From contig CAVUWA010000002.1 of NCBI GenBank assembly GCA_963744995.1, positions 763,302 to 827,301 on the forward strand: a stretch of 64,000 nt of DNA, read 5' to 3'. This document shows positions 2,307-60,222 of the stretch, piece by piece (positions within the stretch are counted from its first letter, which is position 1; each line of letters opens with the position of its first letter). The position numbers and the translations under genes were made by a program. This DNA is from Candidatus Eiseniibacteriota bacterium (GTDB lineage: Bacteria > Eisenbacteria > RBG-16-71-46). The notes under the pieces were generated by a model that had not been told where the DNA came from, did no database searches, and worked only from the letters and a program-made list of their open reading frames with translations.

Positions 2307-2333
2307 TCCGGCCTGCGAGCCGGGCAGTGAACC

Positions 2334-2359
2334 GGGCCGGTCCCGCCGGGACCGGCCCG
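2334..2359. terminator. GC-rich perfect hairpin (11-bp stem gggccggtccc/gggaccggccc, 3-nt loop) between the convergent pruA and polX genes; possible bidirectional terminator
   Basis: Inverted repeat read directly from the sequence. There is no U-tract, which is common in high-GC genomes. Confidence 0.35.
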
Positions 2360-2410
2360 TCGTGCATCCGGAACCGCGCGTGCGGCGGCCCGCGGCAGGG
2401 GGCCGCGGTG

Positions 2411-4312
2411 CTACTTGCCGCGCTTCGGCTTCGAGACCGGGCGCTTCTGTGTCTTCTTCGCAGCGGCGCCGCGTGAGGCCGTGGCGGCCTTCTTCTTCGC
2501 AGCGGCGCCGCGCGAGGCCGCGGGGGCCTTCTTCTTCGCAGCGGGGCTGCGTGCCCCGGCGTCGGCTGCGGAAGCGGGCGCATCCGCCTCGGCGGATGGT
2601 CCGCGCGGGCGCAGCGCCTTTCGAAACACGGCCAGCGACTTCGTGTTCAGCACGTCGTCCTTCTCGAGCCCGGCGCGCCGCGCCACGAACACGCCGTAGC
2701 GCATGTGATCGAGCTGCCGCACGCTGTGGGCGTCGGTGCTGATGACGACCTTCACGCCCTTTTCCTTCGCGGCGCGCGCGTGCACGTCGGAGAGGTCCAT
2801 GCGGTTGGGCTGGGCGTTGATCTCCATCGCCACGCCCTCGCGTGCGGCGCTATCCAGCACCCGGTCCATGTCGAACGCCGCCGGCTGCCGCGAACCGATC
2901 TGCCGCGCGGTGGGATGCCCCATGACGTGCACGGCCGGGTGGGCGAGGGCTTTCAACACGCGGTTCGTCATCCCGGGCCCGGGCATGTCCACCTTCGAGT
3001 GCAGCGAGACGATCACCCAGTCGAGCAGCTCGAGCGCATCGTCATCGAGGTCGAGTGCGCCGTCGGCGAGAATGTCCACTTCGAGGCCGTGCAGCACCTC
3101 GATGTCGGGGACCTTGCGACGCACGGCTTCGATCTCCTTCACCGACTGCCGCACGCGCGCGCCGTCGAAGCCGCCGATCATCGCCAGCGCGGCGGAGTGG
3201 TCGGTGATGGCGCAGTAGGCGTAGCCGCGATCGCGGCAGGCCCGAACCATGGTCTCGAGCGTGTCGCGGCCGTCGGTGCGGTCGGTGTGCATGTGCAGAT
3301 CGGCCACGATGTCGCTCTCTTCGATGAGCTGCGGCAGGCGGCCCTCGCGGGCGAGCGCGATTTCACCGCGTGCCTCGCGCAGCTCGGGCGGAATCCACTC
3401 GAGATCGAGCGCGCGGTAGACGTCTTCTTCGGTGCGCCCGGCGACGATGCGCCCGCCTTCGGTGAGTCCGTACTCGTTGAGCGACCAACCCTTGTCGATG
3501 GCGATGCGGCGCAGCTCGATGTTGTGCTCCTTGCTGCCGGTGAAGTAGAGCAGCGCGGCGCCGAACGACTCGGCCGGAACGTGGCGCAGGTCGACCTGCA
3601 GATCGTTGCGCAGCCGCACGGAGGACTTGGTCGGCCCCTCGCCGAGCGTGTCCGCGACCTCCTGATGACCGAGGAAGGCCTTCATCACGGCTCCGGGATC
3701 GCCGCCGGTGACCAGCAGATCCAGGTCGCCGATGGTCTCCTTGCGGCGCCGGAACGAGCCGGCGATTTCCACGGTCGTGCCGCGCACCCGGCGCACGTGG
3801 GCGGCGAGGGCATGAGCGACGTCCCAGGCGCCCGCCAGCAGCGTACGGCCGCGGTCGCGCGACGCGACCTCGAGCGCCTTGAGCACGTTCTGCTCGACGG
3901 TCCTGCCGAAGCCGGGCAGTTCGCGCAGCTTCTCCTCGCGCGCGGCGCGGGCGAGGTCGTCGCGGGTGCGCACCCCGAGCACCTCGAACAGGGTCTTCAC
4001 GCGCTTGGGCCCGAGACCCTGCAGCTCGGTGAGCTCGACGACGCTCACCGGGATCTTCGCCTTCATGTCCTCGTACAGCGGAGTGGTCCCGGTCTGCACG
4101 ATCTCGCGGATCTTCTGCGCGAGGTCCTTGCCGATCCCGGGCAGGTCCTCGAGCCGGCCCTCTTCCGAGGCGAGCGAGACGACGGATTCCGACTGCTCCT
4201 CGACGATCCGGGCGCCCTCGCGATAGGCACGGATCCGGAACGGGTTCGCGCCCGAGATCTCGAGCATCGTCGCGAGGCGCGAGAACACACGGGCGACGTC
4301 GGTGTTGTTCAT
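2411..4312 (-). CDS. polX: Family X DNA polymerase (PolX) with a C-terminal PHP phosphoesterase domain and a Lys/Ala-rich histone-H1-like C-terminal tail
   Basis: MNNTDVARVF...GIGKDLAQKI (HhH), ...DLDLLV (pol-beta palm), ...HMHTDRTDG...ISTDAHS (PHP). The start ATG at 4310-4312 overlaps the ligA stop (ATGA). The ORF-track extension to 5092 is a shadow of ligA. Confidence 0.9.
   Translation of the reverse strand: MNNTDVARVFSRLATMLEISGANPFRIRAYREGARIVEEQSESVVSLASEEGRLEDLPGIGKDLAQKIREIVQTGTTPLYEDMKAKIPVSVVELTELQGLGPKRVKTLFEVLGVRTRDDLARAAREEKLRELPGFGRTVEQNVLKALEVASRDRGRTLLAGAWDVAHALAAHVRRVRGTTVEIAGSFRRRKETIGDLDLLVTGGDPGAVMKAFLGHQEVADTLGEGPTKSSVRLRNDLQVDLRHVPAESFGAALLYFTGSKEHNIELRRIAIDKGWSLNEYGLTEGGRIVAGRTEEDVYRALDLEWIPPELREARGEIALAREGRLPQLIEESDIVADLHMHTDRTDGRDTLETMVRACRDRGYAYCAITDHSAALAMIGGFDGARVRQSVKEIEAVRRKVPDIEVLHGLEVDILADGALDLDDDALELLDWVIVSLHSKVDMPGPGMTNRVLKALAHPAVHVMGHPTARQIGSRQPAAFDMDRVLDSAAREGVAMEINAQPNRMDLSDVHARAAKEKGVKVVISTDAHSVRQLDHMRYGVFVARRAGLEKDDVLNTKSLAVFRKALRPRGPSAEADAPASAADAGARSPAAKKKAPAASRGAAAKKKAATASRGAAAKKTQKRPVSKPKRGK
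2451..2552. repeat. ~39-bp tandem repeat (about 2.6 copies) inside the 3' end of polX, encoding reiterated AAKKKAxxASRGAA units
   Basis: cttcttcgcagcggcgccgcg(t/c)gaggccg(t/c)gg(c/g)ggc is repeated head-to-tail on the + strand. Confidence 0.6.
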
Positions 4313-6342
4313 GCGCCCTCCAGCCTGGCGAGGAAGGTGGGTTCGTCGATCACCGCGAGGCCGAGCTTCTTCGCCTGATCGAGCTTGGACCCGGCACCCG
4401 GACCGGCGACCACCAGCGTCACCTTGCGGGTGATGCCGCTGGCGATGCGTGCACCGGCGTCCTCGGCCTTGCGCTGCGCCTCGGGGCGCGACATCGCCTC
4501 GAGCGAGCCGGTAAAGACCATCACCTCGCCCGCGAACGGGCGCTGGCCCTGCGGATGCGTCTCGACGAACGGCCTGACGCCGGCCTTCTTCAGGCGCTCG
4601 AGCACCCGGCGGTTCCTCGCGCTGCCGAAGAACGCACTGACCGCGGCCGCGACCTCGGCGCCGATGCCGTGAATGCCGAGCAGGGTCTCTTCGTCGGCGG
4701 ACGTGAGTTTCTCGAGGCCGCCGAAGTGGTCGGCGAGCAGCTTCGCCAGCGTGCTGCCGACGTGCGGAATACCGAGTGCGTACACGAAGCGGTCGAGCCG
4801 CGGCTTCTTGCTCGCTTCGATCGCCTGCATGAGATTCTCGATCGACTTCTCGGCGAAGCCCTCGAGTCCGGCAAGATCGATCGGCGTGAGCTGGTAGATG
4901 TCGGCGAGGTTCTTCACCAGGCTCTTTTCGATCAGCTGCGCCACGGTCTTGCCGCCGAGTCCGACGATGTCCATCGCGCCGCGTGAGACGAAGTGCTCGA
5001 TGTGACCCTGCAGCTGCGCCGGGCAGGCGAGCCCGTTGGTGCACACGTGCGCCGCGCCGTCGCGCACGACCTCGCCGCCGCACACCGGGCATTTGGCCGG
5101 CAGCTCGAAGCGCTTCGCACTCTTCGGGCGCTTCTCCACGATCACCTCGACGACTTCCGGGATCACGTCGCCGGCGCGGCGCACGCGCACGGTGTCCCCG
5201 ATTCGCACGTCCTTGCGGTCGAGCTCGTCCTGGTTGTGCAGCGTCGCGCGGCTCACGGTGACGCCGGACACGTCCACGGGCCGGAGCGCCGCGACCGGCG
5301 TGAGCTTTCCGGTGCGACCGACCTGCACGACGATGTCCTCGATGACCGTGATCTCCTCGCGCGGCGGGAACTTGAACGCGACCGCCCAGCGCGGGCTGCG
5401 CGAGCGTACGCCCAGCACGTCCTGCCAGTCGCGGCGGTCCACCTTGATCACCACGCCGTCGATCTCGTACGGCAGTCCGTCGCGCTTCTCGAGCAGCTCA
5501 TCACGATAGGCGAGCGCCTCGTCGATGCCCTTGCAGTGCCGCACGCCGCGCTCGACGTGGAAGCCCCACCCGCGCATGTCGTCCTGCACGGCCGACAGCG
5601 TCGGCGGCAGCTTCTGCCCGGCGGCGAGGATCTCGTACGCGAAGAAGTCGAGCCTGCGCGACGCGGTGATGGAGGGGTCCAGCTGTCGCACGGTGCCGGC
5701 CGCTGCGTTGCGCGCGTTGGCGAACGGTTCCTCGTCGGCCGCGATCAGGCGCGCATTCATGGCCTGGAACTCCTCGACCGGCATGAGCGCTTCGCCACGC
5801 ACCGCAAGGCGTCCGCCGGGCGGCCGCTTTCCTTCCGGCGCGCGCAACCGGAGCGGGATCGCGCGGATCGTGCGCAGGTTCTCGGTGACGTCCTCGCCGA
5901 CCTCGCCGTCGCCGCGCGTCGAGCCGCGCACGAGCACGCCGTCCTCGTAGACGAGCTCGATCGACAGGCCGTCGAACTTGGGCTCGGCGAGGTAGTCGAC
6001 CGGCTCCTGGAACAGGCCGGCGTCGAGGCCCAGGCCCTTCCTGACCCGCGTGTCGAACTCGCGCACCGCGTCGGCGTCCATGAGCGAATCCAGCGACAGC
6101 ATCGAGCGCAGGTGCTCGACCTTCCTGAACGCGGTGCGCATCGCGCCGCCGACGCGCAGCGTGGGGGAGTCCGCGGGCCGCAGATCGGGGTGGGCCGCCT
6201 CGAGCTCGGTCAGCTCCTTGAACAGGCGGTCGTATTGCGCGTCCGAGATCGTCGGCCGGTCGAGCGCGTAATAGCGGTAGTCGTGCTCGCGGATCTCCTG
6301 CGCGAGCGCCTCGATCCGCTGCTTCGCCTCGGTGCGGTTCAC
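4309..6342 (-). CDS. ligA: NAD+-dependent DNA ligase
   Basis: ...KxDG adenylation motif region (EPKFDGLSIEL), Zn-finger CPVCGGEVVRDGAAHVCTNGLACPAQ, HhH and a C-terminal BRCT. GTG start at 6340-6342. Confidence 0.95.
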   Translation of the reverse strand: MNRTEAKQRIEALAQEIREHDYRYYALDRPTISDAQYDRLFKELTELEAAHPDLRPADSPTLRVGGAMRTAFRKVEHLRSMLSLDSLMDADAVREFDTRVRKGLGLDAGLFQEPVDYLAEPKFDGLSIELVYEDGVLVRGSTRGDGEVGEDVTENLRTIRAIPLRLRAPEGKRPPGGRLAVRGEALMPVEEFQAMNARLIAADEEPFANARNAAAGTVRQLDPSITASRRLDFFAYEILAAGQKLPPTLSAVQDDMRGWGFHVERGVRHCKGIDEALAYRDELLEKRDGLPYEIDGVVIKVDRRDWQDVLGVRSRSPRWAVAFKFPPREEITVIEDIVVQVGRTGKLTPVAALRPVDVSGVTVSRATLHNQDELDRKDVRIGDTVRVRRAGDVIPEVVEVIVEKRPKSAKRFELPAKCPVCGGEVVRDGAAHVCTNGLACPAQLQGHIEHFVSRGAMDIVGLGGKTVAQLIEKSLVKNLADIYQLTPIDLAGLEGFAEKSIENLMQAIEASKKPRLDRFVYALGIPHVGSTLAKLLADHFGGLEKLTSADEETLLGIHGIGAEVAAAVSAFFGSARNRRVLERLKKAGVRPFVETHPQGQRPFAGEVMVFTGSLEAMSRPEAQRKAEDAGARIASGITRKVTLVVAGPGAGSKLDQAKKLGLAVIDEPTFLARLEGA

Positions 6343-9024: not shown

Positions 9025-9306
9025 TCAACCGCCGCTGATCGCCGGGATGATCGAGATCTCGTCGCGGTCGGCGAGCGGCGTCCCGAGTCCGCCCGTGTAG
9101 CGGATGCTCTCGTCGCCGACGAACACGTTGACGTGCGGGCGCACCTCGCCGGTCTCGGTGACGACGCGATCGCGGACGCCGGGATGCACGGCCCACACCT
9201 GCTCGAGGGCGGCGCGAACCGTGGCCGGGACCGCGTCGAGCTGCACGCGGTCCCGGCCGCCGGTGAACTGGCGCAGGTAGCCCGGAATGTGGACGACGAC
9301 GCCCAC
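9025..9306 (-). CDS. MoaD/ThiS-family beta-grasp sulfur-carrier-like protein ending in Gly-Gly
   Basis: 93 aa with C-terminus ...IIPAISGG. GTG start overlaps the stop of the upstream BNR-repeat gene by 1 nt (TAGTG). Confidence 0.8.
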   Translation of the reverse strand: MGVVVHIPGYLRQFTGGRDRVQLDAVPATVRAALEQVWAVHPGVRDRVVTETGEVRPHVNVFVGDESIRYTGGLGTPLADRDEISIIPAISGG

Positions 9307-10625
9307 TACTTCTTCTTCGGGCGCCGCGCCGGCTTACGCTTCGCCGCCGCCTTCTTTTTCGCCGGCCGCCGGGCCGCGCGCGCGGGTTTGCGCGGCGCCG
9401 CCTTCTTCACGGACTTCTGCTTCGCGGCCTTCCTCGCCGGCTTCTTCTTCGCAGCGGACTTCTGCTTCGCCCCGCCCGCCTTCGGTACCCGGATCTTCGC
9501 CGGATCGCCCACCGCGTATGCCTTGACGCACACCACCGGGGGCAGGCCGCCGAGCACCTCGCCCCAGTGCGCGCCGCCGTCCGCCGAGCCGTAGACCGAC
9601 CCGCTGCGGGTGCCGAAGTAGATTCCGGCCGGGTTCAGCGGGTCGGTGCTCATCGCATCGCGCAGGATCGTCTCGAGCGCGTTCGCCTGCGGGAGACCCG
9701 CGGTGAGGGCTTCCCACTTGCCGCCGCCGTCGCGCGTCCGGTACACGCGCAGCCTGCCCTCGGGCGTGCAGCGGAACTGATCGGACTCGAGCGGCACGAT
9801 GTACGCCGTCTCGGGGTCGTGCGGGTGCACGACGATCGGAAAGCCGAAGTCGCTCGGCACGCCGTTCGCCACGTCCTGCCACGAACGGCCGAAGTCGTCG
9901 GAGCGGTAGAGGCCCCAGTGGTTCTGCAGGTACAGGCGGTCGGGTTTCGCCGGGTTCATGGCGATCTTGTGCACGCACTGTCCGAACTCCGGGTACTTGT
10001 CCGGCATGAACTCGGCGCGGATGCCTTTGTTGCTCACTTCCCAGGTGCGGCCGCCGTCCTCGGTGCGGTAGACGCCGGCCGCCGAGACCGCGATCAGCAT
10101 GCGCTCGGGGCGCGCCGGATCCTGCACGATCGTGTGCAGGCACAGACCGCCCGCGCCCGGCTGCCAGCGCGGGCGATGCTCGTGGTTCCAGAGCCCTTCG
10201 TTGAGCGCCCAGGTCGCGCCGCCGTCATGCGACGCGAACAGCGCCGCCGGCTGCACGCCGGCATACAGCGTGTCCGGCTCCTCCGCGCGGCCCGGCAGGA
10301 TCTGCCAGATGCGCGCGATCGAGGCGCCGGTCTCCTCCGGGAACTTGACCGCGTAGCGGTCGGGCTCGGTCCAGGAGCGGCCGAAGTCGTCGGTGTGGGC
10401 GAGGGCGGTGCCCCAGAATTCGCTGCCGGGCGAGGCCCACACGCGGCGGCGGCTCGCGCGCTGGTCGTACGCCATCGCGTAGACGGCCATGCCGGGGAAG
10501 TACGGCCCGCCGACATCCCACTTCCTGCGTGCCGCGTTCGAACGCAGCACGAACGCGCCTTTCATGGTGCCGACGAGCAACAGGACGTCGCCGTCCTTGA
10601 CCGAAGCGTGCCGAACGGTGGCCAT
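9306..10625 (-). CDS. BNR/Asp-box repeat protein (sialidase/glycosyl-hydrolase-like beta-propeller) with a ~60-aa Lys/Ala/Pro-rich C-terminal tail
   Basis: Multiple S-x-D-x-G-x-T-W motifs (SHDGGATW, TEDGGRTW, SDDFGRSW, TRDGGGKW, SADGGAHW). Tail is ...KQKSAAKKKPARKAAKQKSVKKAAPRKPARAARRPAKKKAAAKRKPARRPKKK. Confidence 0.8.
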   Translation of the reverse strand: MATVRHASVKDGDVLLLVGTMKGAFVLRSNAARRKWDVGGPYFPGMAVYAMAYDQRASRRRVWASPGSEFWGTALAHTDDFGRSWTEPDRYAVKFPEETGASIARIWQILPGRAEEPDTLYAGVQPAALFASHDGGATWALNEGLWNHEHRPRWQPGAGGLCLHTIVQDPARPERMLIAVSAAGVYRTEDGGRTWEVSNKGIRAEFMPDKYPEFGQCVHKIAMNPAKPDRLYLQNHWGLYRSDDFGRSWQDVANGVPSDFGFPIVVHPHDPETAYIVPLESDQFRCTPEGRLRVYRTRDGGGKWEALTAGLPQANALETILRDAMSTDPLNPAGIYFGTRSGSVYGSADGGAHWGEVLGGLPPVVCVKAYAVGDPAKIRVPKAGGAKQKSAAKKKPARKAAKQKSVKKAAPRKPARAARRPAKKKAAAKRKPARRPKKK

Positions 10626-21659: not shown

Positions 21660-22409
21660 ATGCGCGTGATCCGCAAGCACCATGCGCTGGTGCGCTGGAC
21701 GCACTGGGCGAACGTGCCGCTGCTCGCGGGGCTGATCGTGAGCGGCCTCGCGATCTACTGGGCGGCGCCGGTGTTCATGTGGCGCAGCGCTGCCGATCCG
21801 CGCCTGCACGACGTCTTCCAGGATGCGGGTCGCGCCATTTCCGGCGTGCTGCATGCGAGCGGCGATCCGCGCTTCTGGATCTACGACCATCTGAGCCTCG
21901 GCCGCTACCAGCTCGCCAACGCACTCCGACTGCACTGGTTGCTCGCCTACCTGTTCATGCTGAACGGGGCGCTGTACGTGCTGGGGCTCGCGGCCGGTGG
22001 CGGCTGGCGCGCGCTGTGGCCCCGGCGTGCGGACGTGAAGGGCGCGCTCGCGATGATGCGCTTCTACCTCGGCGTGATCCCGATGGCGATCCTGCGCAGG
22101 CCGTGGCCGCATCCGCCCGTCACGTCCAAGTACAACGCGCTTCAGCGCGGCGCCTACTTCGCCGTCCCGCTGGCCGGCGCGCTCGCCGTGCTGTCGGGGT
22201 GGGCCATGCACAAGCCGGTCCAGCTCGGCTGGCTCGAGCGCCTGTTCGTGAACTACGACGGCGCGCGCATCGTGCACTTCCTGTGCATGATCGTGCTCGG
22301 CGGCTTCGTGATCCCGCACGTGATCCTGGTGATCGCCGACGGCTGGGACACGTTCCGCTCGATGGTGACCGGCTGGTCGTTGCGCCTGAAAGAGGAACGC
22401 CATGAGTGA
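21660..22409 (+). CDS. Cytochrome b561/Ni-Fe-hydrogenase-type b cytochrome membrane subunit
   Basis: MRVIRKHHALVRWTHWANVPLLAGL...; 4 TM with conserved His residues; GGAGAA RBS before ATG 21660. The ORF track starts at 21621. Confidence 0.7.
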   Translation: MRVIRKHHALVRWTHWANVPLLAGLIVSGLAIYWAAPVFMWRSAADPRLHDVFQDAGRAISGVLHASGDPRFWIYDHLSLGRYQLANALRLHWLLAYLFMLNGALYVLGLAAGGGWRALWPRRADVKGALAMMRFYLGVIPMAILRRPWPHPPVTSKYNALQRGAYFAVPLAGALAVLSGWAMHKPVQLGWLERLFVNYDGARIVHFLCMIVLGGFVIPHVILVIADGWDTFRSMVTGWSLRLKEERHE

Positions 22410-22749
22410 GGACGAACGCCGCGATCGGCCCGAAGACGAAAGCGCGGACGCGGCGCCCCGCGAAGCGGAGGCCCCGGCCGGAACGCCGCATCCGGCCGAA
22501 GGCGGGAGCGCGGAAGGCGACGCTCGATCCGCGGACCCGGAAGACGATGCTCGATCCACCGGCCCGGCCGAGACTCCTCAGGCGCCGCCGTCCCCGCCGG
22601 GTGATTCTGAACCGCCATCAGGCGACGCCGGTTCCGCCACGGGGGGCCACGAAGCCGCCGCGGATGGCGACGAAGCGCCCGCAGACACCACGGCGCCGCC
22701 GCCCGCCCCGCCCGCGCGTCACGCCGCGTGGCACGAAGAGCCCGCGGAA

Positions 22750-23580
22750 GTGCCGCGGGAGGTCCCCGGGAGCCGCCTGCGCGCGCAGTCGCGCCGCGAC
22801 TTCCTGATCTTCGCCGCCGGGGTCGCCGCGAGCGCGGCGGGCGCGTGGTGGCTGCTGCCCTCGCGCACGAAGCGGAACCTGCTCCCCGGCGCGCACGACC
22901 GGCTCGACACGCTGGCGGCGCGCCTCGGGCTCACCAACGACCGCGCCGAGGGCGTGCTGGATCGCGCGCTCGACTTCGACGATGACGTCGCCGAAGCGCT
23001 CTATTCGAAGGATCGCCGGGTCCGGACCTACTCCAGATCCGACGCCCGGCCGCTGCGCAACAACTACAACGGCATGACGCCCGGACCCGAATATCTGAAC
23101 GGCTGGAAGCTGGAGGTGGCGGGCCTCGCCTCGGGGCGGATCGAGCGACTGGACGTCGACGCGCTGCTCTCCGCGCTCCAGTTCCGCGATCAGGTGACGC
23201 GGCTCGTGTGCGTCGAAGGCTGGAGCGGGGTGGCATGGTGGGGTGGGGTGCGCTTCGCCGACTTCCTCGACGCGTTCCCGCCCGCACCGGGCGCGCGCTG
23301 GGCTTCGCTCCGCTCGGCCGTCAACCTCGACGGCCGCGGCCGGCCCGATCCGTACTACGTCTCGATCGACCTGGCGACCGCGCGCCATCCGCAGACACTG
23401 CTCGCCACCCACCATGCCGGCCGGCCGCTCACCCTCGCGCACGGCGCGCCGCTGCGGCTGCTGGCGCCGATGAAGCTCGGACTGAAGAACATCAAGGCGA
23501 TCACCTCGATCACCTACTCGGCGTCCGAACCGCGCGACTACTGGAACGAGCGCGGCTACTCGAAATACGACGGCCTGTAG
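22750..23580 (+). CDS. Tat-exported molybdopterin-dependent oxidoreductase (sulfite-oxidase/YedY-like fold)
   Basis: Twin-arginine motif SRRDFLIFAAGVAASAAGAWW, then an oxidoreductase Mo-binding-like domain (...LVCVEGWSGVAWWGGVRF...). An in-frame ORF opens at 22402 (acidic low-complexity 116 aa, ATGAGTGA overlap with the cytochrome gene). GTG 22750 is chosen because Tat signals must be N-terminal. Confidence 0.65.
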   Translation: MPREVPGSRLRAQSRRDFLIFAAGVAASAAGAWWLLPSRTKRNLLPGAHDRLDTLAARLGLTNDRAEGVLDRALDFDDDVAEALYSKDRRVRTYSRSDARPLRNNYNGMTPGPEYLNGWKLEVAGLASGRIERLDVDALLSALQFRDQVTRLVCVEGWSGVAWWGGVRFADFLDAFPPAPGARWASLRSAVNLDGRGRPDPYYVSIDLATARHPQTLLATHHAGRPLTLAHGAPLRLLAPMKLGLKNIKAITSITYSASEPRDYWNERGYSKYDGL

Positions 23581-29641: not shown

Positions 29642-29738
29642 GGCGTCACTCTGCCGCCGCGAATCCGGAATCGCAACCGGAGCGGCGCCGGAGTTGCGCC
29701 CGTTGGACGTTCCTTCAACGATCCGGAGTCCATCCATC

Positions 29739-30767
29739 ATGGAATATCGTCCGCTCGGCCGTTCCGGCCTGAAAGTCTCCGCAGTGTCCCTGGGCTCGTG
29801 GACCACCTTCGGTGGCTACGTCGACGAAGGCGACTCGGTCGCGATCGTGCGACGCGCATTCGAGCTCGGCGTCAACCTGTTCGATACCGCCGACGTCTAC
29901 GTGCGCGGCGGCGCGGAAGCGGTGCTCGGTCGTGCGCTGGAGGGCCTGCCGCGCGAGCAGATCGTGATCGCGACCAAGGTGATGGGCCGCGTGTGGGACG
30001 GGCCGCTGGGAGCGGGCCTGTCGCGCAAGCACATCTTCGACGCGATGGACCAGAGCCTCAGGCGCCTCAAGGTGGACTACGTGGACCTCTACCAGGCCCA
30101 CGCGCCCGACAAGGACACCCCGATCGAGGAGACGCTCGAGGCGTTCGAGGATCTGGTGCGGATGGGCAAGGCGCGCTACGTCGGGTTCTCGAACTTCGAT
30201 CACCAGCCGCCGCTCGCACGCCGTGCGGTCGCCTACCAGAAGCGCCGCGGCTGGTCGACGTTCATTTCGAGCCAGCCGCGGCTCAACATGCTCGACCGCC
30301 ACGTCGAGAAGGAGCACGTCGCGTTCTGTCGCACGAACGGCATCGGCATGATCGTCTACTCGCCGCTCGCGCAGGGCGTGCTCACGAACAAGTACGCCGG
30401 TGGCGAAATCCCCGAAGGCAGCCGCGCGACCACGCAGTTCAAGCACTTCGTGCTCGACAACGACAACGCGATCACGCCCGGCAACATCGCCGCCGCCGAA
30501 CGTCTCGACGTCTGGGCGAAGCAGAAAGGTCTCGCCGGCGCCGCCGAGGCCGCGCTTGCCTGGGTGCTGAGCCGCCCGCAGCTGTCGAGCGCGATCGTCG
30601 GCGCGACCCGCATGGAACAGCTCGAGGCGAACGTGAAGGCCGCCGAGGTGAAGCTGTCCGCGGCGGAATGGAAGGAGGCCGAACAGGCGGTGCGCGGTCC
30701 GGTCGCGGCGAAGCAGAAGTCGGCCTCGAAGAAGGCGGCCAAGAAGAAGGGAGGACGCGGGCGCTGA
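29739..30767 (+). CDS. Aldo/keto reductase (Kv-beta/YajO-like) with a Lys/Ala-rich C-terminal tail
   Basis: MEYRPLGRSGLKVSAVSLGSWTTFGG..., ...LFDTADVY..., ...VDLYQAHAPD... Tail is AAKQKSASKKAAKKKGGRGR. Confidence 0.85.
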   Translation: MEYRPLGRSGLKVSAVSLGSWTTFGGYVDEGDSVAIVRRAFELGVNLFDTADVYVRGGAEAVLGRALEGLPREQIVIATKVMGRVWDGPLGAGLSRKHIFDAMDQSLRRLKVDYVDLYQAHAPDKDTPIEETLEAFEDLVRMGKARYVGFSNFDHQPPLARRAVAYQKRRGWSTFISSQPRLNMLDRHVEKEHVAFCRTNGIGMIVYSPLAQGVLTNKYAGGEIPEGSRATTQFKHFVLDNDNAITPGNIAAAERLDVWAKQKGLAGAAEAALAWVLSRPQLSSAIVGATRMEQLEANVKAAEVKLSAAEWKEAEQAVRGPVAAKQKSASKKAAKKKGGRGR

Positions 30768-49421: not shown

Positions 49422-49518
49422 TGACATGTAGAATGGGGCCCCGTCACGGAGGTGAGGTGCGCGCGAGGTGCACCGCAGGCTCCCGGCGATGCACCCATGC
49501 CCGGATGGGCCGGAAGGA

Positions 49519-51105
49519 ATGCCCCGTATCCGTCTCACGATGATGCTTGCCGCGGCCGCGGTTCTGCTCACGACCACCGGCGATCGGCTCGCGCCGGGGC
49601 ACGGGCCCGACGGCGTGCACGCCGTGCGCTCGGGCGCTCCGGCGGGGCTGCCCGTGTTCGCGCTGTTCGGCTGGGTGAGCCCGCCGGCCGACTTCGCCGA
49701 CAGCGCGCGCTACGCGGAGATGGCCGCCGCGGGGCTCAACCTCGCACTGCCCGCGTTCGACGACTCCGGTGGACTCGCCCCGCCCGGCGCGCAGCTGGAC
49801 CTCGCGGAAGCGAACGGACTGCGCGTCATACTCTGGGACCCGCGCTTCGAGAAGCTGGCCGACCCGGGCTACGATCCGGACTCGCTGCTCGATCGCATCG
49901 TCGCCGACTACCGGGATCATCCGGGGCTCGCGGGCTACTACCTGGGTGACGAGCCGCAGCCGTCCCTGCTGCCGTTGCTGGCCCGGGTGCACGCGGGCCT
50001 GCGCGCGCGCGACCCCGCGCACCCCGGCTGGAACAACCTGTTCGGCCGGCAGGCCTACGGCAGCGCGGATGCGCTCGAAGCGGCGCTGCGCGCCTACGCC
50101 GACAGCGTCGCGCCCGCGGTGCTGAGCGACGACCACTACGACTTCACGGAGAGCGGCGATCGGGGCCATTTCATCGAGAACGTGACGCGGCTCGCCGCGG
50201 TCGCACGCGCGCACGGCATTCCGTTCTGGTGCGTGGTGCAGCTCACCCAGCACGCGATATTCCGCGCGCTCACGCCGGGCGAGCTGCGCTGGCAGGTGTC
50301 GCATCTGCTCGCGTACGGCGCGCGCGGTGTCGGCTACTTCACCTACTGGACCCCGGCCGCGGACCCGTACTGGAACTGGCAGCCGGCGGTGATCGACACC
50401 GACGGCACGCGCACGTCGTGGTTCGACGTCCTCGCGGCCTTCAATCCGTACGTGCGTGCGGCCGGCGAGCGGCTCGCGGCCCTCGCCTGGATCACCACGC
50501 AGCATGCGGGCAGCGTGCCGGCAGGCGGGCAGGCGTTCGCGCCGGACGACTGGGTGTCGGCGGTCGAGGGGCGTGCGGCGATCGGCGAATTCGCCGATGC
50601 GCAGGGCGGTCGCCGCGTCGTCGTCGCGAACAGCGACTCGGCGTCGGCGCAGCAGATCGCCCTGACGTTCCCGGGCGCCGACTCGGTGGCGTGGCTCCTG
50701 CCGCCGGGGACGTCGTGGAGCGCCGCACCGGCCGGCGTCGTCCCGGGCGGCCTGCGCGTCACCATGACGATCGAGGCCGGTTCGTTCCGGTTGCTGCGGA
50801 TCTTCGGTGCGGACGGGGGCAGCGGCGCGAGCGGCACGCGTCCGGGCCTCGATCTCTCGCCCAACCCCGCGCGCGGCGCGTGCCGCATGGCCGTAGCCGC
50901 CGCGGTGGGTGGCGCGACGCTCGAGATCATCGACGCCGGCGGCCGGCGCATATGGGCGCGCGCGCTCGCACCCGGACGCTCGGTGGTCGAATGGCACGGC
51001 GAGACCGACGGCGGCGGCCGCGCCCCCGGCGGGCTCTACTTCGCCCGCATCCGCGACGAGCGCGGCACCGCCGTGCGGCGGCTGGCCTGGCTCGGGGCGA
51101 ACTGA
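49519..51105 (+). CDS. Secreted TIM-barrel glycoside-hydrolase-like protein with a C-terminal FlgD-Ig/Por-type sorting domain
   Basis: GGAAGG RBS; signal peptide MPRIRLTMMLAAAAVLLTT. ...YYLGDEP... C-terminal tail ...GLDLSPNPARGACRMAV...GLYFARIRDERGTAVRRLAWL. Confidence 0.65.
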   Translation: MPRIRLTMMLAAAAVLLTTTGDRLAPGHGPDGVHAVRSGAPAGLPVFALFGWVSPPADFADSARYAEMAAAGLNLALPAFDDSGGLAPPGAQLDLAEANGLRVILWDPRFEKLADPGYDPDSLLDRIVADYRDHPGLAGYYLGDEPQPSLLPLLARVHAGLRARDPAHPGWNNLFGRQAYGSADALEAALRAYADSVAPAVLSDDHYDFTESGDRGHFIENVTRLAAVARAHGIPFWCVVQLTQHAIFRALTPGELRWQVSHLLAYGARGVGYFTYWTPAADPYWNWQPAVIDTDGTRTSWFDVLAAFNPYVRAAGERLAALAWITTQHAGSVPAGGQAFAPDDWVSAVEGRAAIGEFADAQGGRRVVVANSDSASAQQIALTFPGADSVAWLLPPGTSWSAAPAGVVPGGLRVTMTIEAGSFRLLRIFGADGGSGASGTRPGLDLSPNPARGACRMAVAAAVGGATLEIIDAGGRRIWARALAPGRSVVEWHGETDGGGRAPGGLYFARIRDERGTAVRRLAWLGAN

Positions 51106-54015: not shown

Positions 54016-55289
54016 GGACGGCGCCCCGCGATCAGGTCGAACGCGTTGCGGCGATAGATGTAGACGACCAGCCTGGGCTGTCGCGATGGGTCGGAGGTCG
54101 TGGGGGAGGCCCAGCCGAAGTTGGAGTCGGCATCGAGGCGGTAGCCGAAGCGCGCCCTCCCGCGCATGCGCGACTCGAGGTGCGAGGCGAGGCGCGGCGA
54201 ATGGAACCGCACCCGATTGCCCGCCATCACTTCACCGATCGCGAGCGGCGAGGCAGTGGGGTCGTCGTAGGGCGGCCCCGGGTAACCGATGCCGCATGCC
54301 ATCCATGCACCCTCGGTGCCGCTGATCGTGAGCCTGCGCCCGTTCGGGTTGGAGCCCGCCGACGAAGGCGTGAGGACGAGGACCGCGTCCGCGAGCCGCA
54401 GGTCGTCGCCGTACCCGCTCAGCTCCCAGTCCATCGCACCGTTGTAGGAGGGCCCGCAACCCACGGTCGCGCTGAAGCAGCTCCGGACATCGCCGAAGTT
54501 CGACACGTGTCGCACCGAGGCCCACTGCGAGCACACCAGTGTCAGCGAGTCGACCGGCAGTCCCGTCGAGAGCGTCCCGAAGCGCCAGACCGGACCCTCG
54601 GCCACTTCGCCCGTGGACAGATTCGTCGCTCTCACCGACCAGTAGTGCGTCTCACCCAGCGTCCAGGCCGGGTCGGGAGCATAGGTGGCGAAGCCCGTCG
54701 CGGCGACCGCGGGCGCCGTGCGGGCCGCGACCGACGCCGAGTCGGAGCTTTCGAAGATCTCGTAGCGGATCGTACCGGCGGTGGGCTCGGTGGAGTCCCA
54801 CGCGAGCGGCACGAACGCCGACTCGTCCACCGTGCCGGCTGCGGGCGAGGGATGCGCCGGACGCCGCACGCCGTTGGTCCTGAACTGCCAGAAGAACGGC
54901 TCGAGCGCGGCGCCGTCCGCGGCGCGCACCCCGTCGCCGAAGCTCACCGTGTGAGTGCGCAGCAGCTCGAGCAGGGCCTGCGGCTCGATGTGCACGCGCC
55001 GCCGCGCAGGCTCCCAGGTGATCGCGATCGGGATCCGCCGCGTATCGCGCTTGAGGAAGATGCGATCGGGGCCGAGCGTCGCAGGGTCCAGGTCGCGATC
55101 GAAGTCGGCCCAGATGTCGGTCTCGGCGAGCACGCCGGTCGAGCGGCTCGCCGGCATGAGGCCCGTCACCAGCGCCGGCGGCGCTTCTTCCGGGCCGGCG
55201 AGATCCGCGGCGTGGTGCCGGGCGCAGCCGCCGAGCGCGACGGCGAGCGCGAATGCAAGCGCCGAAGTCCGGATCGAAGGCGCGCTCAT
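54012..55289 (-). CDS. Predicted lipoprotein with Ig-like domains (middle gene)
   Basis: MSAPSIRTSALAFALAVALGGC lipobox. ATGA overlaps on both sides. The ORF-track N-terminal extension is rejected. Confidence 0.7.
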   Translation of the reverse strand: MSAPSIRTSALAFALAVALGGCARHHAADLAGPEEAPPALVTGLMPASRSTGVLAETDIWADFDRDLDPATLGPDRIFLKRDTRRIPIAITWEPARRRVHIEPQALLELLRTHTVSFGDGVRAADGAALEPFFWQFRTNGVRRPAHPSPAAGTVDESAFVPLAWDSTEPTAGTIRYEIFESSDSASVAARTAPAVAATGFATYAPDPAWTLGETHYWSVRATNLSTGEVAEGPVWRFGTLSTGLPVDSLTLVCSQWASVRHVSNFGDVRSCFSATVGCGPSYNGAMDWELSGYGDDLRLADAVLVLTPSSAGSNPNGRRLTISGTEGAWMACGIGYPGPPYDDPTASPLAIGEVMAGNRVRFHSPRLASHLESRMRGRARFGYRLDADSNFGWASPTTSDPSRQPRLVVYIYRRNAFDLIAGRRP

Positions 55290-57667
55290 CGGATCACCAC
55301 GAACTTGCCGCGCTGGGTGCCGAACGGGGAGTCCACCGTGAACAGGTAGATCCCCGATTCCACCTCCTGGCCGTTGCGCGAGACCAGGTCCCACGCGGCT
55401 TCGCCGGCGCCCGCGCGGCCGTCGTGGTGGATCACCTGCACCAGATCGCCGGCGACGGTCCAGATCTTGAGCGTGGCCTCGGCCTTCGGCATGCCCATGA
55501 AGTCGATGTGGCGGGTGCGGATGTCGCCGCTCACCGGCGGGCGCTCCCAGGCGGCCGAGGCGCGGAACGGGTTCGGCACCACCCACACCCCGCGACCCGA
55601 CGCGATCGCCTCCACGCGCGGGGTCACGCGCTCGTCGAACGAGGCGAGCAGCGCGCTCTCGAGCGGCGTGTGCAGGAAGCTGCCGTTCGGCTGGCGGCTC
55701 ACGTAGTCGTACATCGAGGTGACGACGTAGACGTAGTCGAAGCCGTTGAGCGGCGTGTCGTCGACGAACCGGTAGTGGCCCGGGGGATAGAGCTTCTTCT
55801 CGAACAGGATGCGCTCGTAGTCGACCGTGGAGTCGATCGTGGCAGTGAGTGCGGCGGCGCCGTCGAGCGGATCGTCGCTGAACACGCGGCGGATGGACCA
55901 CTGGCGGCGCTCCGGGAGCAGGGCGCCGCGACCGCTCCAGTCGTCGATCCGGTAGAGCCGGTATCCGAGGAAGCGCGACTCACGCGAGCCGTACTGACCG
56001 CCGGCAAGGAGCACCTCGGGCCGGTTGTCCCACTCGATCGTCACCCTGTGGTCGCCGGGGGTGACCCGCCAGCCGGGCGGCGGTGGGACTGCGCCGGGAT
56101 CGGTCCAGTGCAGGTGCGTCTCGCGTCCGCCGAAACCGGTGCACGGATCGCAGTCGGCGTCGGTCCAGATGCAGCTGTCTGCGGTGTAGGTGACCGCAGG
56201 GCCCGTGAACTCGCAACCGGGGAACTTGGTGGTGTTGTAGCAGTGTGGATCCCATTCGAACGTCACGCCCGGCGGCGCCGAGATACAGGACTCGTGACCA
56301 TTCAGACCCGACTCGCCCGAGTACCAGACCGTCGAGTCGGCCGTCTCGATGTCCGGGAGTAGATCAGCGAGCACCCCATCGTGATGCCGCAGCGCATCGG
56401 TCCCCACGGCGTCCACGCTGTCGGCGGCCGGGGCGACGATCAGCGCCGCCGAGAACGTGATCGACTGACCCGGTTCGAGCCTTGCGAACGGGCCGCACGA
56501 GACCAGCGCCACGTAGTCCGCGCCGTCGTCTTCGTCCGGCGCCTGCGTGAGCTGCCCGGCGAGCGCCGCATAGCGAGCCAGATCGGTCGTCGGCACACCA
56601 CCCTGCCCGGGTGGACGGTCCCTCGCGAAAATCAGGTTGCGGAACGACACACGGCTCGGCGCGCGCGCGTAACGGGCGGCGGGCGGGATCAGGCCGAGCG
56701 GATCGGTGGTGTGATCGAGTCCGATGACCGCGATTCGCGCCGGCGCGGATGATGAGGCGTCGCCGACCACCAGCGCGCGGCCGGTCACGGTCCGGATGCA
56801 CGGTTCGGGCGGCGGGACGCCAGGACCGGGGACGCACTTGATCACGTCCCGCCGCGGGCCTTCCCACGTGATGGTGTTGATCCCGAGTCCGTCGTTCACC
56901 GAGAATCCCCACGTCGCGCGCCCGATCCGGTCGTTGATGTGGCCGGACGGATCCTCGCGGCGCCGCGAGTCGAGGTCGGCATAGAGACCCACGTAGACGT
57001 CGGTCAGCGTCTCGCTGGAGTGGTTGGTGATGGTGTACTTCAACGCCGCCCAGCGATCGTACCCGGGGCGTCCCCAGCCGAGGACCTCCTGGTGCACCGA
57101 CAACCCGAGCGGGACGTGATTCTCGACGCCGGTGCTGAAACGCACCGCCTCCGGCTGGTCGTCGGTGTAATCGGCGGCGAGCAGCTGATCGGCGGCCAGA
57201 CCGATGTCCTCGTCCACCTCGCCGTCGTGGTCGTCGTCTCGACCGTTCAGGGTCTCTTCGTCGATCGCGCCGTCGCCGTCGTCGTCCACCAGCCACAGGC
57301 TGCCGAGCCGCCCGCGCCTCGCCTCGACCACCCGGTCGCTCGGGTCCAGCGTCGGCCGCCATTCGAGGAGCGGGTCGCCGGAGACGCGGATCACCCCGTC
57401 GGCGTTGCGCGCGCCCACCCACAGCGAAGCGTAGTTCAGCATCTCGTAGCCGGAGTAGGCGGGGTATTCGAGCGACGGGTCGAACGAACGACCTTCGGAG
57501 AAGAACGCGTTGCCGACGATGCCGGCGTTGGTCACGCGCATGCGGAAGGCGCCGACGTCCAGCACGGGACCCTTGTCCCCGATGTCTAGCACTGCGAATG
57601 CGCGGGCGGGAAACAGGGTGAAAAGGATGCACAGCGCGAAGGTGAATCGGCGCGTCGGCAGCTTCAA
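55286..57667 (-). CDS. Large secreted protein with Asp-rich Ca2+-binding loops, a Cys-rich module and a C-terminal FlgD-Ig/Por-type sorting domain (first gene)
   Basis: DDDGDGAIDEETLNGRDDDHDGEVDED; ...CISAPPGVTFEWDPHCYNTTKFPGCEFTG...CDPCTGFGG. Tail VWVVPNPFRASAAW...GIYLFTVDS...KFVVIR. Probable TTG start (LKLPTRRFTFALCILFTLFPARAFA) after AGGAG. Uncertain by about 80 nt. Confidence 0.7.
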   Translation of the reverse strand: MKLPTRRFTFALCILFTLFPARAFAVLDIGDKGPVLDVGAFRMRVTNAGIVGNAFFSEGRSFDPSLEYPAYSGYEMLNYASLWVGARNADGVIRVSGDPLLEWRPTLDPSDRVVEARRGRLGSLWLVDDDGDGAIDEETLNGRDDDHDGEVDEDIGLAADQLLAADYTDDQPEAVRFSTGVENHVPLGLSVHQEVLGWGRPGYDRWAALKYTITNHSSETLTDVYVGLYADLDSRRREDPSGHINDRIGRATWGFSVNDGLGINTITWEGPRRDVIKCVPGPGVPPPEPCIRTVTGRALVVGDASSSAPARIAVIGLDHTTDPLGLIPPAARYARAPSRVSFRNLIFARDRPPGQGGVPTTDLARYAALAGQLTQAPDEDDGADYVALVSCGPFARLEPGQSITFSAALIVAPAADSVDAVGTDALRHHDGVLADLLPDIETADSTVWYSGESGLNGHESCISAPPGVTFEWDPHCYNTTKFPGCEFTGPAVTYTADSCIWTDADCDPCTGFGGRETHLHWTDPGAVPPPPGWRVTPGDHRVTIEWDNRPEVLLAGGQYGSRESRFLGYRLYRIDDWSGRGALLPERRQWSIRRVFSDDPLDGAAALTATIDSTVDYERILFEKKLYPPGHYRFVDDTPLNGFDYVYVVTSMYDYVSRQPNGSFLHTPLESALLASFDERVTPRVEAIASGRGVWVVPNPFRASAAWERPPVSGDIRTRHIDFMGMPKAEATLKIWTVAGDLVQVIHHDGRAGAGEAAWDLVSRNGQEVESGIYLFTVDSPFGTQRGKFVVIR

Positions 57668-57844
57668 AGAGGACTCACTCCTGGGGGAGTCTGTGGGAGG
57701 GAAAACGTGCGAACGAGAATACCACCAACCGCGCCGCCGCCGTGGCACATCTGCGCGGCCCGCGGCTCACGGCGTGCCGCCGTAACGAGTTCGGACTTTG
57801 CGCTTGACGCCGGGCGCGACTGCGCACAAGGTAGGCGCAGACAT

Positions 57845-60199: not shown

Positions 60200-60222
60200 C
60201 GGCACGCGCTTCCGGAGGTTCC

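Follow-up and report, generated by a model that had tools for sequence, protein, structure and literature searches.

Genes and Basic Tails in the Window

The window analyzed here is a 64-kb stretch of DNA from a high-GC soil bacterium. Three unrelated proteins encoded in it end in basic tails (Table 1), and all three are cytoplasmic. The earlier note had reported Lys/Ala-rich C-termini on a DNA polymerase/3'-5' exonuclease (PolX), a BNR-repeat protein, and an aldo/keto reductase (AKR). All three C-termini are in place, and Pfam confirms the identities of the proteins.

Table 1. Genes, C-terminal tails, and tandem repeats in the window
Feature	Position	Strand	Remarks
PolX gene (DNA polymerase/3'-5' exonuclease)	2411..4312	-	633 aa, tail included
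PolX C-terminal tail	2414..2593	-	~60 aa past the PHP domain
39-bp tandem repeat in PolX tail	2452..2553	.	Encodes the 13-aa unit AAKKKAxxASRGA
NAD-dependent DNA ligase gene (LigA)	4309..6342	-	Pfam; context gene, without basic tail
ThiS/MoaD/SAMP1-like small protein gene	9025..9306	-	Ends in GG; Pfam ThiS; context gene, outside the tail
BNR/Asp-box (Sortilin-Vps10-like) beta-propeller gene	9306..10625	-	439 aa; Pfam BNR and Sortilin-Vps10
BNR C-terminal tail	9309..9482	-	58 aa
Weak 27-bp tandem repeat in BNR tail	9396..9452	.	Unit AKQKSxxKK; TRF
AKR gene, Kv-beta/YghZ-like subgroup	29736..30767	+	342 aa
AKR C-terminal tail	30690..30764	+	~25 aa
Weak 15-bp repeat (GCGGCCAAGAAGAAG) in AKR tail	30705..30750	.	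TRF

The PolX protein contains the Pfam domains HHH_8, HHH_5, pol-beta thumb (DNA_pol_B_thumb), and PHP. The NCBIfam PolX equivalog model NF006375 matches residues 1-566 with 495.9 bits (cut-off 426), and PDB 3AU2 (575 aa) is aligned to residues 1-559 (E 4.6e-126). The Pol-beta-like N-terminal half, the PHP domain, and the equivalog match together identify a bacterial PolX. The protein ends in ARSPAAKKKAPAASRGAAAKKKAATASRGAAAKKTQKRPVSKPKRGK, followed by the stop codon. The tail has a net charge of +14 and a pI of 11.6; its K/A-rich portion corresponds to 2414-2560. GC3 of the tail DNA is 0.85, and all 12 Lys codons are AAG, with no AAA. The genes for LigA and PolX share an ATGA overlap, which indicates translational coupling, and the LigA-PolX operon with this overlap is conserved.

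The closest structure to the BNR protein is PDB 3B7F (E 1.4e-75, residues 8-368 aligned), which is itself uncharacterized. AF2 predicts an all-beta propeller-like fold with pLDDT over 90 up to about residue 375, and the TM score of this model against 3B7F is 0.91 (target-normalized). Asp-box (BNR) repeats on a beta-propeller are seen both by Pfam and in the AF2 model. GH74, DAIP, Ycf48, and sortilin show only general-fold similarity to the model, at 12-19% identity. With the NCBIfam F510_1955 glycosylhydrolase model the protein reaches 63 bits, well under the cut-off of 175. Because of this low score and the uncharacterized closest structure, the label "BNR hydrolase" used in the earlier note is not established. 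By reading, a signal peptide is not apparent at the N-terminus.

The BNR protein ends in KAGGAKQKSAAKKKPARKAAKQKSVKKAAPRKPARAARRPAKKKAAAKRKPARRPKKK before the stop codon. Its tail has a net charge of +28 and a pI of 12.0, and the tail DNA shows GC3 of 0.93 with 18 AAG and two AAA codons for Lys. In the AF2 model the tail has pLDDT of 43-63 and no secondary structure, and it is predicted to be disordered.

The GTG start of the ThiS-like gene overlaps the BNR stop codon (TAGTG). This small protein scores 57 bits with the NCBIfam SAMP1 model, whose cut-off is 60. An ORF of at least 70 aa that ends in GG is found directly downstream of the BNR gene at about 45 of 80 loci. Clustering of six-frame ORFs around the BNR gene, which is noisy from shadow ORFs, revealed no partner beyond the ThiS-like gene.

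In the AKR, Pfam Aldo_ket_red (PF00248) matches residues 17-318 with 262.9 bits and covers profile positions 2-289 of 291. This is a full-length match to the TIM-barrel family model and places the protein in the AKR superfamily; the NCBIfam models for the YghZ-like and Kv-beta subfamilies score below their cut-offs. PDB homologs align no further than residue 300-325. The C-terminal end reads VAAKQKSASKKAAKKKGGRGR, followed by the stop codon. The net charge of the tail is +10, its pI is 12.0, the GC3 is 0.88, and Lys is encoded by AAG seven times and by AAA never.

The earlier note had compared the tails with histone H1, and in composition they do resemble the C-terminal domain of H1, and they are coding. 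Lys and Arg account for about 28-52% of residues, Ala is abundant, and each tail contains 0-3 acidic residues. Only three 25-aa stretches with at least seven Lys exist in the six frames of the window, and they are these C-termini; the crudely called coding ORFs of the window contain about 1.7% Lys. Pooled Lys codons of the three tails are 37 AAG versus two AAA, and their GC3 of 0.85-0.93 is coding-like.

Tandem Repeats in the Tails

The earlier note had described the PolX tail as about 2.6 copies of a 39-bp unit. TRF confirmed this array, with a period of 39, 2.6 copies, 90% matches, and a score of 169. It is the strongest tandem array of the window, and its score exceeds the top score (97) across 30 dinucleotide-matched simulated windows. 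At the protein level, the period-13 signal beats 99% of shuffles. The arrays in the BNR tail (2.1 copies, 80% matches, score 72) and in the AKR tail (3.1 copies, 74% matches, score 57) are both inside the range of the simulated windows and individually non-significant. Three of the seven TRF arrays scoring at least 57 sit in the tails, which make up about 0.6% of the window.

Tails of the Orthologs

Orthologs were collected for each of the three proteins (~120 per protein, 61-90% identity). They are mostly from Candidatus Eisenbacteria and come from independent contigs. Tails of at least 20 aa are present in 119 of 120 PolX, 118 of 120 BNR, and 98 of 119 AKR orthologs, with median lengths of 59, 53.5, and 27 aa, respectively. 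The earlier note had stated that absence of the tails from orthologs would indicate an assembly artifact; their presence in nearly all orthologs does not bear this out. An assembly or frameshift artifact is excluded, as the tails are in frame, have coding-like GC3, and are found on more than 100 independent ortholog contigs.

The tails of orthologs cannot be aligned, and what is kept is the basic K/R/A/P composition and the charge. The median net charge of the tails is +15 for PolX, +22 for BNR, and +10 for AKR, and that of the folded cores is -9, 0, and +1. Asp and Glu together account for 0.4-3.4% of residues in the pooled tails. K/(K+R) varies between 0 and 0.9. Thus, of the Lys/Ala-rich character proposed before, the positive charge is conserved in orthologs and Lys/Ala as such is not. 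Lys-specific chemistry, such as SAMP1-like conjugation or lysine polyphosphorylation, is unlikely because some ortholog tails are Arg-based, with 0-2 Lys. SAMP1-like conjugation is unlikely also because the presence of the BNR tail does not follow that of the ThiS-like gene.

The protein collection contains nothing that is 90% or more identical to this PolX, whose cluster (P0001) has one member. The closest PolX ortholog is 82% identical, yet its tail is unrelated in sequence. One relative (L001) has a PolX that ends in a mere 13-aa basic stub, which implies that some lineages can do without the long tail.

Exact periodic runs beyond 99% of shuffles are present in 9 of 117 PolX, 20 of 116 BNR, and 3 of 69 AKR tails, and the duplicated units differ among orthologs and are 4-20 aa long. 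In-frame tandem duplication has thus occurred in the tail DNA repeatedly and independently, and the 39-bp repeat of PolX is a recent case of it.

The PolX structures 3AU2 and 2W9M, the AKR structures, and 3B7F for BNR all stop at the domain boundary, as do BNR homologs of 35-50% identity. Judged from these alignments, the tails are add-ons to complete folds.

Distribution of the Tails

The related loci were retrieved via the tail-bearing proteins themselves, and tail counts per locus are biased by this. In five related loci, with 86 called genes in all, strongly basic C-termini are restricted to the orthologs of PolX, BNR, and AKR. LigA, Memo, EVE, and the remaining neighbors lack them; the C-terminal net charge of LigA orthologs is -3 to +1. 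The only unbiased additional tail-bearing family is a VOC/glyoxalase-like protein (L005), one among about 110 neighboring genes. The earlier note had suggested a lineage-specific targeting tag. A general tag of this kind is not seen in these 86 genes, and the BNR tail is not restricted to the lineage either. Tailed BNR proteins occur as well in Acidobacteriota and further phyla (Terriglobia, Vicinamibacterales, Rokubacteria, Gemmataceae, and Verrucomicrobiia); the BNR homologs compared from Gemmatimonadota, Pyrinomonadaceae, and Myxococcota lack the tail. Tails go with certain orthogroups and are not a mark of the entire lineage.

Constraint on Composition and Length

Translations of the non-coding frames of the window and a geometric length model were used as the neutral expectation. 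Compared with these translations, the tails contain 15-27 times as much Lys, 0.06-0.55 times as much Asp and Glu, and 0.23-0.44 times as many hydrophobic residues. Tails shorter than 20 aa are found in less than 2% of PolX and BNR orthologs versus 22% expected geometrically, and those longer than 120 aa in 0-2.5% versus 23%. Selection keeps the bulk properties of the tails, namely strong positive charge, high Ala/Pro content, scarcity of acidic and hydrophobic residues, and a size of some tens of amino acids, and does not keep the sequence. The earlier note had offered a repeat-expansion hotspot as another origin of the tails. The recurrent in-frame duplication of the tail DNA agrees with it, but the process is not neutral, as composition and length are constrained.

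Possible Functions of the Tails

By analogy with Ku, Hlp, TopA, and AlgP, the tails are probably selected, disordered polycations that bind polyanions, most likely DNA; we put the probability of this reading at roughly 55%. The tails would tether the enzymes, electrostatically and without specificity, to a polyanion of the cell, most probably the nucleoid DNA. The PolX tail would raise the affinity for DNA or help to bridge DNA, like the lysine-rich tails of Ku, Hlp, and TopA. By the same physics, the AKR and BNR tails would enrich their proteins at the nucleoid or at some other polyanion. The tails turn over fast, in part by in-frame tandem duplication. Their sequence does not discriminate among DNA, RNA, polyphosphate, and acidic phospholipid as the ligand. 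Against a DNA tether, the AKR, the VOC/glyoxalase-like protein, and the BNR propeller have no obvious need for DNA. LigA adjoins PolX and has no tail, which means that a tail is no rule for DNA enzymes in this lineage. Furthermore, removal of the tail from M. smegmatis Ku led to higher DNA affinity (PMC3553676), and from this, "tether" is perhaps too simple a description.

It is unlikely that the relevant polyanion is polyphosphate (polyP), with the tails bringing the enzymes to polyP granules or making them polyP-dependent clients, for example of Lon. The model for this is AlgP, whose H1-like C-terminal domain is required for the spacing of polyP granules; strongly positive proteins are conspicuous in the granule proteome (PMC9239181). 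The tail net charges of +10 to +28 suit polyP binding. In one relative (L085) the AKR adjoins the phosphate-uptake genes PhoU-PstSCAB, but this Pst neighborhood is not conserved in the window, and neither ppk, ppx, nor other polyP genes are among the window ORFs scanned. A polyP function is also not cleanly separable from a DNA tether, since the tails of AlgP and PhaF bind DNA too.

Electrostatic anchoring of the enzymes on the acidic inner face of the cytoplasmic membrane is rather improbable. Polybasic C-termini of other systems bind acidic phospholipids. Lys and Arg are dense at the extreme C-terminus of the tails, and about 90% of BNR orthologs end in three basic residues. However, hydrophobic and aromatic residues are scarce (4-8%) and no amphipathic pattern is present, membrane binding by charge alone tends to be weak unless a lipid or hydrophobic anchor assists it, and PolX works on DNA.

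A similarly low probability is given to an effect of bulk physical chemistry, in which the tails offset acidic cores, solubilize the proteins as "entropic bristles", or form RNA-dependent condensates. PolX cores are acidic, and the tail moves the pI of the full-length protein from 6.2 to 9.1. Lys-rich disordered regions elsewhere are reported to drive RNA condensation (PMC6606616). Simple charge compensation does not fit the other two proteins, whose cores are nearly neutral (0 and +1) and yet carry tails of +22 and +10.

That the tails are functionless by-products of stop loss and repeat expansion in a stop-poor, slippage-prone GC-rich genome is very improbable and largely refuted: random sequence of 71% GC is indeed stop-poor (six-frame mean run of ~83 codons in the window), non-coding frames are already Arg-rich (21%), Ala-rich (15%), and net positive, and tandem duplications are present, but the Lys surplus, the shortage of acidic and hydrophobic residues, the non-geometric lengths, and the GC3 contradict it, and the tails are kept in nearly all of the ~120 orthologs per family, yet are missing from 79 neighboring genes. 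Neutral GC-rich read-through is rejected because the composition and length statistics deviate.

A wider speculation, which we hold to be doubtful, is that repair and electrophile-detoxifying enzymes form a nucleoid- or polyP-bound layer, localized purely by polycation tails, that may protect DNA. Its members may be the Kv-beta/YghZ-like AKR, the VOC/glyoxalase, the beta-propeller coupled with the SAMP1-like protein, and PolX; its hosts may be uncultured soil phyla (Eisenbacteria, parts of Acidobacteriota, and others); and it may serve, for example, in desiccation or starvation. In that case, bacteria would have in electrostatic tails a general means of targeting metabolic enzymes, beyond DNA-binding proteins.

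It is already known that Lys-rich disordered tails alter the behavior of the bacterial DNA proteins Ku, HU/Hlp, TopA, and AlgP. Here such tails are stably kept, by charge, on PolX and on proteins without a known nucleic-acid role. They persist in more than 100 orthologs each, and that of the propeller in several phyla. If the polycation tails do tether proteins to the nucleoid or polyP, they would be a simple and evolvable means to position soluble bacterial enzymes, and the recurrence of such extensions in soil bacteria would be explained. Annotation pipelines and structure predictors would do well to take these extensions as real functional parts and not as mis-called stop codons.

Comparison with Known Systems

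Lys-rich low-complexity regions are linked with DNA binding throughout prokaryotes (PMC6821194). Like the C-terminal domain of H1 and chlamydial Hc1/Hc2, the tails are Lys/Ala/Pro-rich, contain few acidic and hydrophobic residues, and are predicted to be disordered (for BNR, in the AF2 model). The globular domain of linker histone H1 is missing; the Pfam scan of the three proteins revealed only PolX, BNR, and AKR domains and no Linker_histone winged-helix domain. The likeness is compositional only. Homology of the tails to H1, Hc1, or Hc2 is dismissed, as the PolX and BNR tails have no Pfam match at E<=10, Hc1 and HC2 included. The length of Hc2 is reported to vary through repeat number (PMC2848022).

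The tails share two features with those of Ku, Hlp, TopA, and AlgP. They extend past a complete fold, which ends at residue 559-566 in PolX, at 368 in BNR, and at or before 300-325 in AKR, and their sequence turns over fast among orthologs with the composition kept. [quoted passage not shown] The TopA tail is, like that of PolX, a clade-specific Lys-rich C-terminal extension of a DNA enzyme in high-GC bacteria; the enzyme and the phylum are different, and TopA tails replace zinc-finger domains, whereas the PolX tail is purely added.

The tails of Ku, Hlp/HupB, and D. radiodurans HU are likewise terminal, disordered, K/A/P-rich, fast-evolving, and variable among homologs, on a conserved fold. 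The lysine-rich PAKKA tails of M. smegmatis Ku and Hlp modulate both end-joining and the binding of DNA, and such tails are proposed to have arisen repeatedly on unrelated DNA-binding proteins (PMC3553676). The closest parallel to these mycobacterial tails is the PolX tail beside LigA. In contrast to Ku and Hlp, the canonical PAKKA is missing here. PAKKA, KPAA, and AKKA motifs are all absent from the tails, which have only AAKK and AKKK runs, the 2.6 copies of the 13-aa unit in PolX, and other units in orthologs. Arg often replaces Lys across orthologs, and the carriers include the AKR, the BNR propeller, and the VOC protein, none of which has a known DNA function.

AlgP and PhaF of Pseudomonas resemble the tails in H1-like K/P/A composition, disorder, tandem-repeat origin, and mutational instability (PMC9239181). 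Their tails are different in being about 150 aa long, with regular 4-aa repeats, and in being attached to small helical domains, while those described here are 25-60 aa long, irregular, and attached to enzymes. The tails of AlgP and PhaF attach polyP or PHA granules, which are structures other than DNA, to the nucleoid or a polyanion (PMC9239181), and they are a precedent for such tails on proteins other than DNA enzymes.

Lysine-Rich C-Terminal Tails in the Window

PolX, the BNR/Asp-box beta-propeller protein (BNR) and the aldo/keto reductase (AKR), whose identities were confirmed with Pfam and NCBIfam, all carry the Lys/Ala-rich low-complexity C-terminal tails reported in the earlier note, at the same coordinates. 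When the entire window is scanned in all six frames, the C-termini of these three proteins are the only 25-aa segments with 7 or more Lys; Lys constitutes ~1.7% of residues in crudely called coding ORFs of the window.

The PolX tail is encoded by a tandem DNA repeat, exactly as first described. It is the top-scoring array of the window, and its score exceeds that of every one of 30 simulated windows matched for dinucleotide content (simulated maximum, 97). The BNR tail has an array of 27-bp units (score 72) and the AKR tail one of 15-bp units (score 57); both scores are inside the simulated range, and alone neither is significant. Of the seven arrays with a score of 57 or more, three are in the ~0.6% of the window that encodes the tails.

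Coordinates of the tailed genes and other features (positions in the window unless a locus is given)
Feature	Position	Strand	Description
Convergent intergenic region	2307-2410		between aldehyde dehydrogenase and PolX; contains a GC-rich inverted repeat, ccgggccggtcccgccgggaccggcccg
PolX	2411-4312	-	633 aa; C-terminal end ...ARSPAAKKKAPAASRGAAAKKKAATASRGAAAKKTQKRPVSKPKRGK
PolX tail array	2452-2553		period 39, 2.6 copies, 90% matches, TRF score 169
PolX/LigA overlap	4309-4312	-	ATGA with LigA stop codon; true PolX start is ATG at 4312
ThiS/MoaD/SAMP1-like gene	9025-9306	-	93 aa, GG end; GTG start overlaps BNR stop codon (TAGTG)
BNR/Asp-box propeller	9306-10625	-	439 aa; 58-aa tail with 20 Lys, 10 Arg, 16 Ala
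End of BNR tail	9309-9320	-	only positionally conserved part of the tail
Molybdopterin-binding oxidoreductase ORF	22390-23577	+	
Acidic start of this ORF	22400-22760		~115 aa, Asp/Glu/Ala/Pro-rich
Arrays in acidic start	22511-22567, 22634-22676		two of the higher-scoring arrays of the window
AKR	29736-30767	+	342 aa; C-terminal end ...VAAKQKSASKKAAKKKGGRGR
Large ORFs with beta-rich C-terminal module	1-543, 49456-51102, 55289-57766, 59635-61620		...GLYFxRxxxxxxxxxRKxVLLR
Glyoxalase/VOC protein	L005:4744-5784	-	two domains; ~75-aa Lys/Ala tail ...AKQPAKKKAAKKKAARKSVKRGKAGKKSAARKKRR

Conservation and Form of the Tails

Each protein served as a query against 5.8 billion proteins, and the best 120 matches per protein were used. 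These are 61-90% identical to the query and, where the source is named, mostly from Candidatus Eisenbacteria. Tail length was counted from a conserved anchor that marks where the fold ends. The tails are not absent from orthologs: at least 20 aa are present in 119/120 PolX, 118/120 BNR and 98/119 AKR orthologs, with median lengths of 59, 53.5 and 27 aa, respectively. The median net charges are +15, +22 and +10 for the tails, versus -9, 0 and +1 for the cores. Pooled tails contain 28-43% Lys+Arg, 24-27% Ala, 9-14% Pro and 0.4-3.4% Asp+Glu; hydrophobic residues occupy 4-8%, compared with ~31% in cores. Tail sequences cannot be aligned between orthologs and K/(K+R) spans 0 to 0.9. Thus, charge and composition are conserved, not the sequence or Lys itself.

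Structural comparison shows that the tails are additions to complete folds. PolX structures from T. thermophilus (3AU2, 575 aa) and D. radiodurans (2W9M, 578 aa) stop at the domain boundary, and alignments with solved AKR structures reach query residue 300-325 at most. The BNR-related structure 3B7F likewise stops at the fold, and BNR homologs at 35-50% identity end immediately past the last propeller strand. In the AlphaFold2 model of the BNR protein, an all-beta domain has pLDDT >90 up to ~residue 375, and the tail has pLDDT 43-63 without secondary structure. The label "BNR hydrolase" is unsupported, as the closest structure, 3B7F, is uncharacterised and hydrolase models score below their cut-offs.

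The very end of the BNR tail is the only part of it conserved by position. Each of the last three positions is basic in ~90% of the BNR orthologs, and 53% of them end with KKK, versus 2-5% for PolX and AKR. Speculatively, the AAGAAGAAG codons, just upstream of the overlapping ThiS-like start, might double as its ribosome-binding site.

Turnover by Tandem Duplication

In 9/117 PolX, 20/116 BNR and 3/69 AKR tails, exact periodic runs exceed those in 99% of shuffles of the same composition. The repeat units, 4-20 aa long, differ in every case (GAKAG x5, AAKPAR x3 and KKQAV x4, for example). Such recurrent but differing runs indicate that tandem duplication is a repeated source of tail material. 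The 13-aa unit of PolX in the window is another duplication of this kind. It postdates the split from the nearest sampled relative, whose PolX is 82% identical but has an unrelated tail. The proposal of a repeat-expansion hotspot is therefore half right: duplication is recurrent, but charge and composition decide what is kept of its product.

Distribution among Genes and Phyla

Of the 86 genes called in five related loci, which were sampled via the tailed proteins themselves, none but the PolX, BNR and AKR orthologs reaches a C-terminal net charge of +8 or more. No such C-terminus was seen on LigA, Memo, EVE, ICMT-like or other neighbours in these loci. With the VOC protein on an Eisenbacteria MAG contig (L005), the number of unrelated enzyme families with such tails rises to four.

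Species-representative genomes were scanned with the BNR alignment, yielding orthologs at 54-67% identity in several phyla. Basic BNR tails are present in Eisenbacteria, Terriglobia, Vicinamibacterales, Rokubacteria, Gemmataceae and Verrucomicrobiia, short in Thermoanaerobaculia, and absent in the Pyrinomonadaceae, Blastocatellia, Gemmatimonadota and Myxococcota scanned. In Terriglobia and other Acidobacteriota (L006-L057, 52-60% GC), the tail is rich in Ser/Lys/Arg/Thr/Pro, not Ala/Lys (e.g., ...SRSKSRSKSKTRRSKR). The positive charge is retained, and the filler residues track genome composition at lower GC. One PolX ortholog (L001) has only a 13-aa basic stub. Given this patchy presence across orthologs and phyla, the tail is a feature of particular orthogroups that persists for long periods but can be lost. 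The lineage-specific tag suggested in the earlier note does not hold as a general rule, given the tailless neighbours and the BNR tails in several phyla.

Evidence against Neutral Extension in GC-Rich DNA

Stop codons are scarce in random DNA at 71% GC, the GC content of the window, where the six-frame mean run is ~83 codons, and wrong-frame translations of the window are Arg- and Ala-rich with net positive charge. It is therefore conceivable that a basic A/R/P/G tail of ~50 aa arises without function. This neutral model is rejected on composition, length and codon use. Compared with the non-coding-frame composition of the window itself, Lys in the tails is enriched 15-27 times and Ala 1.6-1.8 times, while Asp+Glu (0.06-0.55 times) and hydrophobic residues (0.23-0.44 times) are depleted. 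The pooled chi-square counts related sequences as independent, but the effect sizes are large enough that the conclusion is unchanged. The length distribution is not geometric: for PolX and BNR, tails shorter than 20 aa make up under 2%, versus 22% expected, and only 0-2.5% exceed 120 aa, versus 23% expected. The tail DNA of the window has GC3 of 0.85-0.93, and its Lys codons (37 AAG, 2 AAA) follow the coding bias of the genome.

Neighbouring Genes and Other Features

The ThiS-like, ubiquitin-fold protein encoded directly after the BNR gene scores 57 bits against NCBIfam SAMP1 (cut-off 60). Directly downstream of the BNR gene, ~45/80 loci (L003-L082) have an ORF of 70 aa or more that ends in GG, whether the tail is present or not; these loci span Acidobacteriota, Gemmatimonadota, Eisenbacteria, Verrucomicrobiia and Planctomycetes. 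The LigA-then-PolX order is conserved in related Eisenbacteria contigs (L001, L083 and L084), and Memo, BNR, ThiS-like and EVE genes are also nearby in L001 and L083, arranged roughly as in the window.

The inverted repeat downstream of PolX is plausibly a bidirectional terminator. The strongly acidic start of the oxidoreductase, opposite in charge to the three tails, is followed by a Tat-like motif (SRRDFL) and by a hydrophobic stretch. The beta-rich C-terminal module shared by four large ORFs, which matches FlgD_ig weakly in one of them (E 1.8e-4), may be a sorting or secretion domain; the same domain is also recorded on large ORFs of related loci.

Possible Function

The tails are translated, predicted to be disordered, strongly cationic, selectively maintained and quick to turn over through duplication. 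Such tails would bind a polyanion non-specifically. For PolX, DNA is the most likely ligand, because its gene and LigA are translationally coupled within a conserved operon and because there are precedents among DNA proteins. In mycobacteria, the Lys-rich tails of Ku and Hlp promote both the bridging of DNA and end-joining (PMC3553676), the processivity of actinobacterial TopA is attributed to Lys-rich tails in PMC7398561, and Lys-rich low-complexity regions are associated with DNA-binding functions throughout the prokaryotes (PMC6821194). The tails of AKR, the VOC protein and the propeller would follow the same physics with one polyanion or another; the H1-like tails of AlgP and PhaF can serve polyP or PHA granules, and also DNA (PMC9239181). 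Lys-specific chemistry, including conjugation of the SAMP1-like protein to tail lysines, is unlikely, because some tails are built almost entirely on Arg and whether a tail is present does not depend on the ThiS-like partner gene.

Comparison with Known Tails

The observation of the tails is confirmed, and its original interpretation is partly supported. "Histone-H1-like" holds for composition only, as the isolated tails matched no Pfam family even at E<=10 and do not fall within the H1, Hc1 or Hc2 families. They also lack the PAKKA and KPAA motifs of canonical lysine-rich tails. They appear to belong to a known class of lysine-rich low-complexity extensions, described as having "evolved repeatedly" on DNA-binding proteins of bacteria (PMC3553676), and the evidence here demonstrates no new mechanism. 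PolX is a straightforward new host of such tails. Conserved tails on AKR, the VOC protein and an uncharacterised propeller are less expected; in eukaryotic proteomes, metabolic proteins are depleted of low-complexity regions, according to earlier analyses as cited by PMC6821194.
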